From the IMG/VR virus record IMGVR_UViG_2529293240_000017: a DNA stretch of 11,141 nt, one strand, 5' to 3'. Numbering within the stretch: the stretch's first letter is position 1; every line of letters starts with the position of its first letter. The position numbers were made by a program, and so were the translations under genes. The stretch is from a virus (lineage: Duplodnaviria; Heunggongvirae; Uroviricota; Caudoviricetes). The notes under the pieces were generated by a model. It worked only from the letters and a program-made list of their open reading frames with translations, was not told where the DNA came from and searched no databases. This document shows, in pieces, positions 1,077-11,141 of the stretch.

Positions 1077-1180
1077 AGCAACACTGACATGCTAAAGCAA
1101 AAAATGATGAATAAGTTGAGTTGTGCATATGTAGCCTGACCGTCACAAAGTATATGGTGTCTGTACCAGTGGATTTGCCC

Positions 1181-2086
1181 CTATATTTCCAGACATCTGT
1201 TATCACTTAACCCATTACAAGCCCGCTGCCGCAGATATTCCCGTGGCGAGCGATAACCCAGCGCACTATGCGGATGCCATTCGTTATAATGCTCGAACGC
1301 CTCTGCAAGGTTCTTTGCTGCCGTTAACCCGTCTGGTTTGGGCATGATACTGATGTAGTCACGCTTTATCGTTTTCACGAAGCTCTCTGCTATTCCGTTA
1401 CTCTCCGGACTCCGCACCGCCGTGTTCTTCGGTTCAAGTCCCAACATCCGGGCGAACTGGCGTGTTTCATTAGCCCGGTAGCATGAACCATTATCCGTCA
1501 GCCACTCCACTGGAGACGACGGAAGATCGTTGCCGAAGCGGCGTTCCACCGCTCCCAGCATGACGTCCTGTACTGTTTCACTGTTGAAGCCGCCGGTAGT
1601 CACCGCCCAGTGCAGTGCCTCACGATCACAGCAGTCCAGCGCGAACGTGACACGCAGTCTCTCTCCGTTATCACAGCAGAACTCGAACCCGTCAGAGCAC
1701 CATCGCTGATTGCTTTCTTTCACGGCCACTCTGCCTGTATGTGCCCGTTTCGATGGCGGTACAGCAGGTTTTCGCTCAAGCAACAGCGCATTCTGGCGCA
1801 TGATCCGGTAAACACGTTTGGCATTGATCGCAGGCATACCATCAAGTTCTGCCTGTCTGCGAAGCAGCGCCCATACCCGACGATAACCATACGTGGGCAG
1901 CTCTCCGATAACATGGTGTATACGGAGAAGCACATCCGTATCATCAGTGTGACGACTGCGGCGGCCATCCATCCAGTCATCGGTTCGTCTGAGAATGACG
2001 TGCAACTGCGCACGCGACACCCGGAGACAACGGCTGACTAAGCTTACTCCCCATCCCCGGGCAATAAGGGCGCGTGCGCTATCCAC
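1181..2086 (-). CDS. insD: IS2 transposase OrfB (InsD)
   Basis: 301-aa [15 protein letters not shown]...[24 protein letters not shown], identical to the copy at 10236-11141. Recognised as IS2 InsD from memory. Confidence 0.9.
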
Positions 2087-2409
2087 TTTTTTGCCCGTCC
2101 ATATTCAACGGCTTCTTTGAGGAGTTCATTTTCCATCGTTTTCTTGCCGAGCAGGCGCTGGAGTTCTTTAATCTGCTTCATGGCGGCAGCAAGTTCAGAG
2201 GCAGGAACAACCTGTTCTCCGGCGGCCACAGCAGTAAGACTTCCTTCCTGGTATTGCTTACGCCAGAGAAATAACTGGCTGGCTGCTACACCATGTTGCC
2301 GGGCAACGAGGGAGACCGTCATCCCCGGTTCAAAGCTCTGCTGAACAATTGCGATCTTTTCCTGTGTGGTACGCCGTCTGCGTTTCTCCGGCCCTAAGAC
2401 ATCAATCAT
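2044..2409 (-). CDS. insC: IS2 OrfA (InsC), helix-turn-helix protein
   Basis: 121-aa [59 protein letters not shown]..., overlapping insD as expected for an IS3-family OrfA/OrfB pair. Confidence 0.9.
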
Positions 2410-2499
2410 CTGCTCTCCAATGACTAGTCTAAAACTAGTATTAAGACTATCACTTAAATAAGTGATACTGGTTGTCTGGAGATTCAGGGGGCCAGTCTA

Positions 2500-3273
2500 G
2501 GTACAGCATGAACCCTCAGACAGAAAACAAAGTGATGAGCGGCTAAAACTGGAGATTAAGGTGGCACATATCCGCACTCGCGAAACATATGGAACCCGGC
2601 GGCTCCAGACGGAGCTGGCAGAGAATGGCATCATCGTTGGTCGTGACCGACTGGCACGTCTTCGTAAGGAGCTAAGGCTACGCTGTAAGCAGAAACGCAA
2701 GTTCAGAGCGACTACGAACCCGAACCACAATCTGCCAGTTGCGCCAAATCTGCTGAACCAGACGTTCGCTCCTACAGCACCAAATCAGGTCTGGGTGCGG
2801 ACCTGACGTATGTTGGCACACAGGAGGGATGGTTGTACCTCGCTGGCATCAAAGATGTTTATACGTGCGAAATTGTCGGCTACGCCATGGGAGAGCACAT
2901 GACAAAAGAGCTGACAGGTAAAGCCCTGTTTATGGCGCTCAGGAGCCAGCGCCCACCTGCTGGGCTAATCCACCACTCTGATCGAGGTTCACAGTACTGC
3001 GCATACGATTACCGGGTCATACAGGAGCAGTCTGGTCTGAAAACATCAATGTCGCGTAAAGGTAACTGTTACGACAACGCTCCGATGGAAAGCTTCTGGG
3101 GAACGCTGAAAAATGAGAGCCTGAGCCACTATCGTTTTAATAACCGGGATGAAGCCATCTCAGTAATACGGGAATACATTGAGATTTTCTACAATCGTCA
3201 GCGTCGTCACTCTCGTCTGGGGAATATCTCCCCGGCAGCCTTCAGGGAAAAATATCATCAGATGGCTGCTTAA
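2500..3273 (+). pseudogene. IS3-family OrfB transposase, 5'-truncated and frameshifted
   Basis: Track ORFs 2561..2806 and 2833..3273 are the two halves of the OrfB frame. A 1-bp deletion (ctgggtgcgg here versus ctgggtggcgg at 551-561) splits the frame. Confidence 0.75.
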
Positions 3274-3316
3274 AAAAAGAACAAATGGTAGTGTCCGCTA
3301 TTGCCAGTACACCTCA
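2500..3316 (+). mobile_element. IS3-family (IS600-like) element, 3' portion, second copy; 64 bp longer at the IS2 junction than copy 1
   Basis: Homologous to 323-1076. The extra 2500-2563 reads in the OrfB frame as ...EPSDRKQSDERLKLEIKV before [10 protein letters not shown]. The right end ...CCAGTACACCTCA sits at about 3316, inside the holin gene. Confidence 0.65.
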
Positions 3317-3477
3317 GTCAGATATGTCAGCAGCCCAAACAGCAGACTCCCCAGCACGCCTATTGCCGCCCACTGAGACGGGGAAACCCTGTCCAGCAAC
3401 TGCAGGAACCAGTAGCCCGTTCCCACCGCTGACGTGGTGTATGACACACCTGTTGTGATTTTTTCCATCTGGTCCAT
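3298..3477 (-). pseudogene. S21-type class II holin (pinholin, EssD/EssQ-like), C-terminally truncated by the IS600-like end
   Basis: [54 protein letters not shown] matches phage 21 S / E. coli EssD-type holins from memory. The last five codons (EVYWQ) plus the stop are read from IS sequence. GGGAGA Shine-Dalgarno lies upstream of the ATG at 3477. Confidence 0.7.
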
Positions 3478-9022: not shown

Positions 9023-9093
9023 AGCCTGCTTCTCCTGTCAACGCAAAGCAGAAGTGTCACCTTCGGTGCGAAACAGAGATGTCATGCTTTGGT

Positions 9094-9381
9094 TCAGAGA
9101 ATGCGTTTGACCGCCTCGCTATATACTTCCGAGCGTTCTCTTTTCCCAACAGAAATCACGAAAACGACAACTTTCTCGTCTATAACCTGGTATACAAGGC
9201 GATAGCCTGAAGACCGGAGCTTAATCTTGTAACAATCAGGCATACCACGGAGCTTGTTTGCTTCAATCCGGGGTGACTCAAGTACTTCAACCAGCTTCTT
9301 TTTCAACTGTTCACGTACCGTCGAGCCCAGCTTTCGCCATTCCTTTAGTGCCCGCTCGTCAAAATCCAGAAAATACGCCAT
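9094..9381 (-). CDS. relE: RelE mRNA-interferase toxin
   Basis: 95-aa ORF MAYFLDFDERALKEWRKLGSTVREQLKKKL...VISVGKRERSEVYSEAVKRIL, matching E. coli RelE as recalled. Start overlaps the relB stop (ATGA). Confidence 0.95.
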   Translation of the reverse strand: MAYFLDFDERALKEWRKLGSTVREQLKKKLVEVLESPRIEANKLRGMPDCYKIKLRSSGYRLVYQVIDEKVVVFVISVGKRERSEVYSEAVKRIL

Positions 9382-9620
9382 CAGAGTTCATCCAGCGTCA
9401 CACGTACTGGCTTAGGATTACGAAGCCGTTCTTTCACTATCTCCACAAGTTCAGCATCTTCATCGCTCAGGAGTGTCTGTTTGAACGGCAAGCGTTCATT
9501 GTCAGCGATATACTCGAGCATGAGACGAAGCGCTTCAGAAGGAGTTACACCCATTTTTTCAAGCGCGGCGTAAGAACGCGCTTTAAGTTCATCGTCAATA
9601 CGCAGGTTAATGCTACCCAT
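9381..9620 (-). CDS. relB: RelB antitoxin
   Basis: 79-aa ORF MGSINLRIDDELKARSYAALEKMGVTPSEALRLMLEYIADNERLPFKQ... Confidence 0.95.
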   Translation of the reverse strand: MGSINLRIDDELKARSYAALEKMGVTPSEALRLMLEYIADNERLPFKQTLLSDEDAELVEIVKERLRNPKPVRVTLDEL

Positions 9621-9700
9621 GTCTTACACCTCTTGTAATTACAAATGTCATTACAAGTATCGCACTACAACATGCTTAGGGCAAGTCACGAAGGAAGTCA
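9621..9700 (-). promoter_or_regulatory. relBE promoter and operator (relO)
   Basis: Palindromic half-sites CTTGTAATTACAA and TGTCATTACAAG at 9632-9657, immediately upstream of the relB ATG. Minus-strand -35 TTGCCC and -10 GATACT with 17-bp spacing. Confidence 0.7.
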
Positions 9701-9912
9701 GAAAGTAGTCGTAAGAACGGTGATCACTGTCCGCTTTGTGCCAGGAGCAGCCATTGCTAAGTCTATCCTGTATTGTGCAGGTCAGCTCTTTTTTAAAGAG
9801 TCCGGCCATCATCTTACTGGTTAGACTGGCCCCCTGAATCTCCAGACAACCAGTATCACTTATTTAAGTGATAGTCTTAATACTAGTTTTTAGACTAGTC
9901 ATTGGAGAACAG

Positions 9913-10278
9913 ATGATTGATGTCTTAGGGCCGGAGAAACGCAGACGGCGTACCACACAGGAAAAGATCGCAATTGTTCAGCAGAGCTTTGAACCGGGGA
10001 TGACGGTCTCCCTCGTTGCCCGGCAACATGGTGTAGCAGCCAGCCAGTTATTTCTCTGGCGTAAGCAATACCAGGAAGGAAGTCTTACTGCTGTGGCCGC
10101 CGGAGAACAGGTTGTTCCTGCCTCTGAACTTGCTGCCGCCATGAAGCAGATTAAAGAACTCCAGCGCCTGCTCGGCAAGAAAACGATGGAAAATGAACTC
10201 CTCAAAGAAGCCGTTGAATATGGACGGGCAAAAAAGTGGATAGCGCACGCGCCCTTATTGCCCGGGGATGGGGAGTAA
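9913..10278 (+). CDS. insC: IS2 OrfA (InsC)
   Basis: ATG at 9913 gives the 121-aa [13 protein letters not shown]... product. The track ORF 9868..10278 is an upstream extension from a non-ATG start. Confidence 0.9.
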
Positions 10279-11141
10279 GCTTAGTCAGCCGTTGTCTCCG
10301 GGTGTCGCGTGCGCAGTTGCACGTCATTCTCAGACGAACCGATGACTGGATGGATGGCCGCCGCAGTCGTCACACTGATGATACGGATGTGCTTCTCCGT
10401 ATACACCATGTTATCGGAGAGCTGCCCACGTATGGTTATCGTCGGGTATGGGCGCTGCTTCGCAGACAGGCAGAACTTGATGGTATGCCTGCGATCAATG
10501 CCAAACGTGTTTACCGGATCATGCGCCAGAATGCGCTGTTGCTTGAGCGAAAACCTGCTGTACCGCCATCGAAACGGGCACATACAGGCAGAGTGGCCGT
10601 GAAAGAAAGCAATCAGCGATGGTGCTCTGACGGGTTCGAGTTCTGCTGTGATAACGGAGAGAGACTGCGTGTCACGTTCGCGCTGGACTGCTGTGATCGT
10701 GAGGCACTGCACTGGGCGGTGACTACCGGCGGCTTCAACAGTGAAACAGTACAGGACGTCATGCTGGGAGCGGTGGAACGCCGCTTCGGCAACGATCTTC
10801 CGTCGTCTCCAGTGGAGTGGCTGACGGATAATGGTTCATGCTACCGGGCTAATGAAACACGCCAGTTCGCCCGGATGTTGGGACTTGAACCGAAGAACAC
10901 GGCGGTGCGGAGTCCGGAGAGTAACGGAATAGCAGAGAGCTTCGTGAAAACGATAAAGCGTGACTACATCAGTATCATGCCCAAACCAGACGGGTTAACG
11001 GCAGCAAAGAACCTTGCAGAGGCGTTCGAGCATTATAACGAATGGCATCCGCATAGTGCGCTGGGTTATCGCTCGCCACGGGAATATCTGCGGCAGCGGG
11101 CTTGTAATGGGTTAAGTGATAACAGATGTCTGGAAATATAG
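10236..11141 (+). CDS. insD: IS2 transposase OrfB (InsD)
   Basis: 301-aa ORF identical to 1181-2086. The stop TAG is the last three bases of the window. Confidence 0.9.

Follow-up and report, generated by a model that had tools for sequence, protein, structure and literature searches.

The 11,141-nucleotide stretch of DNA from the IMG/VR virus record IMGVR_UViG_2529293240_000017, hereafter called the window, carries a prophage remnant between two copies of the insertion sequence (IS) IS2 that lie in opposite orientations. Does this pair only offer a substrate on which the enclosed segment could be inverted, or do the two copies mark the endpoints of an inversion that has taken place? The locus belongs to the chromosome of Shigella flexneri and contains a decayed Qin prophage inserted in ydfJ; the segment between the IS2 copies is inverted as compared to Escherichia coli K-12 and to IS2-free S. 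flexneri. Very probably, one IS2 inserted into ydfV, a second IS2 was acquired with the loss of 947 bp, and recombination between both copies inverted the DNA between them.

The inverted IS2 pair and the orientation of its interior

The initial annotation had placed two nearly identical, mutually inverted IS2 copies at 1170-2499 (minus strand) and 9822-11141 (plus strand), here named A and C, and these coordinates are right. A repeat search of the window returned inverted-repeat arms at 1181-2434 / 9888-11141 (1,254 nt) and 2431-2499 / 9822-9890. Alignment of both copies in IS orientation with MAFFT (1,331 columns) revealed differences at 2 of 1,320 positions, corresponding to 99.85% identity, a similarity far beyond chance. 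The differences, a 1-nt deletion in copy A at IS position 66 and a G/A exchange at position 88, are both private to copy A and close to the left inverted repeat (IRL); hence, polymorphisms within IS2 are uninformative for mapping a crossover.

Each copy is an element of about 1,331 bp starting at an IRL with TAGACTGGCCCC... and ending at the right inverted repeat (IRR) with ...GGGGCAAATCCA. Both termini of copy A are present (TGGATTTGCCCC...GGGGCCAGTCTA). Copy C is 11 nt short at its end, since the window closes with the stop codon of orfB; the parent contig carries this copy through to 11152, and its IRR was read there at 11141-11152. A domain search of the open reading frames (ORFs) of copy C identified HTH_Tnp_1 in 9868-10278 and HTH_21, rve and rve_3 in 10236-11141. 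The A6G motif caaaaaag at about 10230, in the overlap of orfA and orfB, is the site of the -1 frameshift, and in RefSeq, copies of identical sequence bear the label 'IS3-like element IS2 family transposase' with a programmed frameshift. The copies thus resemble the IS2 of E. coli K-12 in length (1,331 bp), in IRL (TAGACTGG...) and IRR (...CAAATCCA), in the orfA/orfB organization with its A6G slippery site, in the rve DDE domain and in the 5-bp target duplication. Differences from the K-12 element are slight: the deletion and the substitution near the IRL of copy A, and an orfA frameshift in a third, partial copy described below (copy 0).

The window matches, with 100% identity, positions 5558-16698 of the S. 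flexneri contig AFOW01000019.1 (assembly GCA_000217895.2) read as reverse complement; its first base is the end of this contig. Database proteins of identical sequence bear names that point to S. flexneri. For comparisons extending past copy C the parent contig was used (locus L008). A draft contig that ends inside an IS2 raises the suspicion of an assembly artefact, in which the assembler would have oriented the interior arbitrarily and the true genome would be K-12-like: short reads are unable to orient a segment between 1.3-kb inverted repeats, and the IS copies are break points in most other assemblies of this lineage. However, the separate, complete 4.71-Mb chromosome of S. flexneri CP100042.1 is collinear with window positions 323-11141, at 99.89% identity over 10.8 kb. 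As this chromosome differs elsewhere, with IS600-1 intact and copy 0 absent, it independently confirms the inverted IS2 pair as well as the orientation of the interior, and an artefact is very unlikely.

Further carriers were searched for at the protein and at the DNA level. The YdfV'-IS2 fusion ORF and the 323-amino-acid (aa) YdfU led only to short draft contigs ending at IS copies; long loci were matched by Q (262 aa) and the truncated holin, holin' (59 aa). No record among the complete E. coli genomes contained at least 80% of the window, and none of them had the ydfV::IS2 or IS600::IS2 junctions. Exact junction scans of GTDB representatives, IMG/VR and JGI metagenomes gave 0 matches each. 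E. coli strain 201609 has a similar prophage with unrelated IS2 insertions.

The orientation of the interior was determined by comparison with K-12 and with ten long IS2-free S. flexneri loci (L013-L022). Beyond copy C the parent contig continues with ATCAG, ydfJ nt 486-1005, ydfI, ydfZ, ydfH, ydfG and dcp. From ydfJ' to dcp this is the left flank of Qin in K-12, lying in the opposite orientation to the prophage genes. The 7,322 bp between the IS2 copies (2500-9821) do contain relB, relE, hokD, Q, rusA and the tRNAs, as the initial annotation had described for a bracketed remnant of 7.3 kb, and they are on the opposite strand as compared to both K-12 and the S. flexneri locus L014, i.e. inverted relative to both flanks. 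We then reverse-complemented 2500-9821 in silico within the extended window. After this re-inversion all non-IS2 pieces lined up along a single strand of L014 with rising coordinates (2740-3581, 3576-5382, 5454-10979 and 11927-17474), and the corresponding K-12 matches were 1935-2030, 2025-3822, 3902-4843 and 16581-20001. The re-inverted map shows a 5-bp overlap in ydfV, which is the target duplication, and a gap of 947 bp (L014 10980-11926) comprising IS600b nt 1-446, a 12-nt spacer and ydfJ nt 1-489. This collinearity means that one inversion with its ends in the IS2 copies and one 947-bp deletion adjacent to an IS2 explain all four junctions. The initial annotation had held that its proposal would fail if no related genome had the segment the other way round; such genomes were found.

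The split ydfV gene and the missing 947 bp

Window positions 9037-9821 and 1076-1169 map to adjacent parts of ydfV on opposite strands with an overlap of exactly 5 bp, both in E. coli E2865 and in K-12. In base-level alignment the intact gene reads ...CATCTTACTGGTACAGACACC... at the target. The 5' piece of ydfV reads up to CTGGT and then enters copy C at its IRL; the 3' piece, as reverse complement, leaves copy A at its IRR with CTGGT and continues with ACAGACACC. Since both halves share CTGGT, a single IS2 had inserted into ydfV with the canonical 5-bp duplication. The two halves now adjoin two different, mutually inverted IS2 copies, which is the scar expected of an inversion.

Written in IS orientation, the flanks are GTACC-[IS2]-CTGGT for copy A and CTGGT-[IS2]-ATCAG for copy C; the pentamer next to the IRL of copy A is GGTAC, nt 447-451 of IS600. 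Thus, the CTGGT pair recognized against intact ydfV is split between the copies, and the two other flanks, GTACC and ATCAG, form no pair and lie 947 bp apart on the ancestral map.

These flanks also bear on the proposal of the initial annotation that the IS2 pair could act like a composite transposon. If so, copy A, the cargo and copy C would have arrived at the site as one unit. Both outer ends of the pair are IRRs, circle formation is possible for IS2 derivatives that have two right ends (PMC3299598), and the outer pentamers, ACCAG and ATCAG, differ at one base only. However, one half of ydfV lies outside the unit on the left and the other inside on the right, and ydfV was therefore hit by a single IS2 and not by a unit. 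Moreover, the outer flanks, ACCAG with the ydfV 3' part and ATCAG with ydfJ, are no direct duplication, and none of the references has them side by side. What the IS2 copies enclose is the resident prophage, still in its own chromosomal surroundings, and the unit was found at no other locus in the complete genomes of E. coli, the GTDB representatives, IMG/VR or the JGI metagenomes. The segment almost certainly did not arrive in this way, and this part of the annotation is not supported.

Further observations concern the insertion sites. The IS2 target in ydfV (TTACTGGTACAGAC; 1160-1169 / 9812-9821) and the IS600 junction site (CAACTGGGTACAGCA; 2500-2510) share ACTGG(G)TACAG, a near-palindrome around GTAC whose register relative to the IS2 ends differs between the two sites. 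This likeness could be due to chance (roughly estimated at about 5%) or to a weak target preference. In E. coli RM10410 (NZ_CP042350.1:1767788-1767993) the ydfV::IS2 junction query matches in two pieces located 46 nt apart, which suggests another IS2-like end near the same site; ydfV may be a recurrent IS target.

IS600-bounded flips and the history of the locus

The holin' gene of the window is fused to an IS600 tip, and this holin'::IS600 ORF (UniProt Q7UCH5_SHIFL) occurs on 839 contigs. The ten IS2-free loci show two arrangements. In arrangement I (L014, L017, L018, L020, L022) the order is ydeP-fim-IS1-IS600-[ydfV...Q...holin']-IS600-ydfJ-ydfI...dcp, and the holin'-ydfJ-ydfI side is collinear with K-12 Qin. 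Arrangement II (L013, L015, L016, L019, L021) reads ydfI-ydfJ-IS600-[ydfV...holin']-IS600-IS1-fim-ydeP; it is the segment of arrangement I flipped between inverted IS600 copies, an event separate from the IS2 flip. Among the contigs read, including similar loci, the orientations of the IS600-bounded segment split 7 vs 9. The presence of both orientations between inverted IS600 copies demonstrates that repeat-mediated flipping of this region does occur.

The window and the IS600-bounded flips have in common that the segment from ydfV to holin' is inverted relative to ydfJ-ydfI between inverted IS copies. They differ in that, with the IS600 flips of arrangements I and II, ydfJ is intact, ydfV is complete as far as nt 261, and the flanks ydfJ-ydfI and IS1-fim-ydeP change places; the window lineage has an inner, overlapping IS2 pair and another outer-left flank, with IS66-type sequence. 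The proposal that the IS2 pair is a substrate for homologous inversion and could account for the rearranged state of the region is supported by the inverted interior and by the split ydfV carrying CTGGT. It was incomplete, as the 947-bp deletion is needed as well and inverted IS600 copies flip the segment in other strains.

Several details distinguish the IS600-ydfV junctions. The junction lies at about nt 267 of ydfV in the window lineage and at nt 261 in 10/10 IS2-free genomes (window 1071-1083 compared with L014:3480-3499), and the window has 7 additional nt (AGCAACA); this offset may stem from a separate insertion of IS600 or from the loss of 7 nt. The tip of IS600-1 is CACCCCA in the window and CACCTCA in CP100042.1 and elsewhere. 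In CP100042.1, the sequence past the IRL end of IS600-1 (L007:16890-20789) has no match in K-12 Qin or in the IS2-free loci; this left flank, of IS66-type or unmatched sequence, holds an IS66-family tnpB and another partial IS600. Within 4 kb beyond IS600-1 it contains neither ydeP, fim or IS1 nor the 5' part of ydfJ. Apparently, the outer-left flank has been rearranged again.

Arrangement II already has the orientation of the window segment relative to ydfJ, and a derivation from it by excision and re-integration was therefore considered. Direct IS2 copies in ydfJ and ydfV would loop out a circle [ydfJ 5' - IS600 - ydfV 3'], which would recombine into a third IS2 located in IS600b, followed by a further deletion. 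This route explains the order ydfJ'-IS2-ydfV5' by a simple deletion, but it requires three insertions, an excision, a re-integration and the further deletion. In addition, the ydfJ 5' part that it predicts past IS600-1 is absent from the complete chromosome CP100042.1, and a single re-inversion, which restores two K-12-like junctions at once, is more parsimonious. We therefore regard this route as very unlikely.

The history that we propose instead starts from an ancestral order collinear with K-12, ...IS600-ydfV-relB-relE-hokD-rem-ydfU-rusA-Q-tRNAs-holin'-IS600b-ydfJ-ydfI.... The insertion of one IS2 into ydfV, with duplication of CTGGT, is read directly at the junctions. A second IS2 of opposite orientation would then have taken the place of 947 bp, with IS600b nt 447 on one side and ydfJ nt 486 on the other. 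This loss is evident from the alignment; it may have resulted from two direct IS2 insertions followed by recombination or from a deletion beside one IS2. Finally, recombination between the inverted 1.3-kb copies would have turned the interior; the inversion itself is observed, and a RecA-dependent homologous exchange is its presumed cause. Acquisition of the second copy and inversion could have occurred in either order. The product would have ydfV divided, its 3' end outside copy A and its 5' end inside copy C, with ydfJ' directly past copy C, as is found.

Alternatively, a transposase could have produced this state in one step. A donor IS2 at the junction of ydfJ nt 486 and IS600b nt 447 would have transposed intramolecularly into ydfV, e.g. 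via a reactive (IS2)2 dimer or abutted ends, thereby turning the segment, adding a second copy in opposite orientation and duplicating CTGGT in inverted form, all at once. The expected product fits the locus: the target pentamer adjoins the IRR of one copy and the IRL of the other, and the remaining ends keep the flanks of the donor. Furthermore, fewer events are needed than for separate insertion and recombination, the two copies are almost identical, and no genome with a simple ydfV::IS2 was present among those searched. On the other hand, nothing in the sequence demands such an event. For elements of the IS30 type, IS dimers are an established route to inversion; for IS2 this route would be hypothetical. 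Transposition of IS2 follows a copy-out/paste-in pathway, in which a figure-of-eight is converted into a minicircle with IRR as the donor end, and this route of IS2 and the IS3 family yields simple insertions and no replicative inversions (PMC3299598). The circle pathway by itself thus gives no inversion, which favours host recombination, and we consider the one-step event unlikely.

Several points weigh against an inversion by recombination between two inserted copies. A clean reciprocal junction, with a matching pentamer and the 5' part of IS600 past copy C, had been predicted beforehand, and this prediction failed: the flank is ATCAG followed by ydfJ. The mismatch of GTACC and ATCAG means that one clean exchange between two simple insertions is insufficient and that the 947-bp deletion must be added. 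The arrangement-I genomes are close to the ancestor but not identical with it, as indicated by the 7-nt junction offset and the differing sequence past IS600-1. Presumed intermediates, i.e. a simple ydfV::IS2 or an IS2 in IS600b or ydfJ with matching duplications, did not appear in the genomes and databases searched, and the IS2-bearing lineage is known from two long assemblies only, both in one orientation. Finally, the nucleotide sequence by itself fits a RecA-dependent exchange and a transposase-mediated inversion alike. With these points included, the three-event account of IS2 insertion in ydfV, a second IS2 with deletion, and inversion by recombination is still the best explanation. The IS2 pair remains a substrate for flipping back.

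A dedicated inversion system was also considered. Prophage-borne segments in two orientations are likewise known from the Pin/Gin/Hin systems, among them pinQ of intact Qin. The window differs from these in having neither an invertase gene nor short recombination sites, and its repeats are a whole 1.3-kb IS. An invertase switch was excluded: every ORF belongs to an IS or to Qin, none of the ORFs scanned has a recombinase domain, and the pinQ region present in K-12 Qin is deleted in the locus. Another idea is that the Qin remnant acts as a recurrently flipping cassette within nested IS600 and IS2 inverted repeats, forming a slow, heritable expression switch under selection. Its orientation may then determine which host genes follow the Q-antiterminated late promoter, namely ydfJ-ydfI in the ancestral state and fim-ydeP or IS/ydfV debris in the flipped state. 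The 7 vs 9 split and the independent IS2 flip are compatible with recurrent switching and equally with neutral recombination between repeats; such a switch is highly unlikely. Any switching by the IS2 pair would be slow, would proceed by general recombination and would have no known regulatory output.

Gene content of the remnant and meaning of the rearrangement

The features of the locus are listed in Table 1. The initial annotation had overlooked the IS2 piece at 1-322, the IS600 fragments at 323-1076 and 2500-3316 and the ydfV fragment at 1077-1169. The IS600 tips lie at window positions 1076 and 3316, and the IRR tip of IS600b truncates the prophage holin gene.

Table 1. Features of the window, with positions counted from its first nucleotide
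Feature	Position	Strand	Remarks
IS2 copy 0, IRL-proximal 322 nt	1-322	minus	cut by the end of the source contig
IS600-1, 3' part (IS600 nt 511-1264)	323-1076	plus	IRR tip ...CCAGTACACCCCA; RefSeq IS600 annotation, rve domains
ydfV 3' fragment, 93 nt (gene nt ~173-267)	1077-1169	minus	inverted relative to the ydfV 5' fragment 9645-9821
IS2 target duplication copy ACCAG	1165-1169		last 5 nt of the ydfV 3' fragment
IS2 copy A	1170-2499	minus	full element, 1,330 nt; IRR end 1170, IRL end 2499
IS600-2 (IS600b), 3' part (IS600 nt 447-1264, one 1-nt deletion)	2500-3316	plus	inside the bracketed segment
holin' (P21-type, fused to IS600 tip)	3298-3477	minus	
Qin-type lambdoid prophage remnant	3317-9821	both	
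iraM-like gene	4233-4568	plus	
tRNA-Arg	5480-5556	minus	
tRNA-Ile2 (CAT)	5658-5733	minus	
Q antiterminator	5910-6698	minus	
rusA	6713-7069	minus	
ydfU	7082-8053	minus	323-aa product
92-aa ORF	8055-8333	minus	
rem, disrupted	8400-8650	minus	
hokD	8867-9022	minus	
relE	9094-9381	minus	
relB	9381-9620	minus	
ydfV 5' fragment, first 177 nt	9645-9821	plus	
CTGGT, second IS2 target duplication copy in ydfV	9817-9821	plus	partner 1165-1169 adjoins the other IS2 copy
IS2 copy C	9822-11141	plus	first 1,320 of 1,331 nt; starts TAGACTGGCCCC

Copy 0 has a 1-nt deletion at IS position 230, which causes its orfA frameshift. Only the AFOW contig, whose end lies within copy 0, has IS600-1 interrupted by it (at IS600 nt 511, with the flank GCACA); CP100042.1 lacks copy 0 and has an intact IS600-1. 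Copy 0 is thus either a strain-specific insertion or an artefact of the contig end. Relative to copy A it is a direct repeat and relative to copy C an inverted one, which makes further deletion or inversion isomers possible.

Several prophage genes vary between genomes. Q encodes 262 aa through a nonsense change from TGG to TGA (W263*) at 5910-5912; other S. flexneri genomes have a 273-aa form. In ydfU, a 78-bp in-frame deletion (26 codons) near the 5' end, at about 8017-8023, lies between short CCGGAAC direct repeats. The comparison form of 349 aa is found in other S. flexneri genomes and in the draft contig L002, which shares the ydfV::IS2 junction with the window. In the window contig, rem is broken into two short ORFs of 41 and 38 aa; CP100042.1 has the gene intact (83 aa). 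The tRNA at 5658-5733 was called tRNA-Met (CAT) by ARAGORN; RefSeq labels its orthologue in E. coli prophages tRNA-Ile, which identifies it as a lysidine-type Ile2 tRNA typical of the lambdoid Q-S interval.

Between S. flexneri 8401 and 301, six inversions were attributed to IS629, IS1, IS4, ISSfl2 and IS600, with IS600 accounting for one of them (PMC1550401). The locus described here is similar in that inverted IS copies bracket a segment of differing orientation in an IS-rich Shigella genome and no dedicated recombinase is involved. It differs by its IS2 pair, an element not listed in that study, by the small size of the segment (7.3 kb), by a scar legible at the base level (split ydfV, CTGGT), by the 947-bp deletion and by mismatched reciprocal flanks. 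IS-mediated inversion is well known in Shigella, and the present case is an ordinary but clearly documented IS-driven rearrangement; it reveals no new mechanism or function and adds a further instance of known IS-mediated inversions, here with IS2. No function is implied, nor was any sign of one found, and the locus reflects passive IS-driven scrambling of a dead prophage.

The value of the case is mainly that of a worked example and a caution. Inverted IS pairs of Shigella are actual endpoints of rearrangements and not only potential substrates, and the scar of an inversion can be read from target duplications together with an outgroup; mismatched flanks expose hidden additional events, in this case the 947-bp deletion. 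Small IS-bounded segments vary in orientation among near-identical S. flexneri, and this affects synteny-based typing and reference-guided scaffolding, and also how draft assemblies are to be interpreted.

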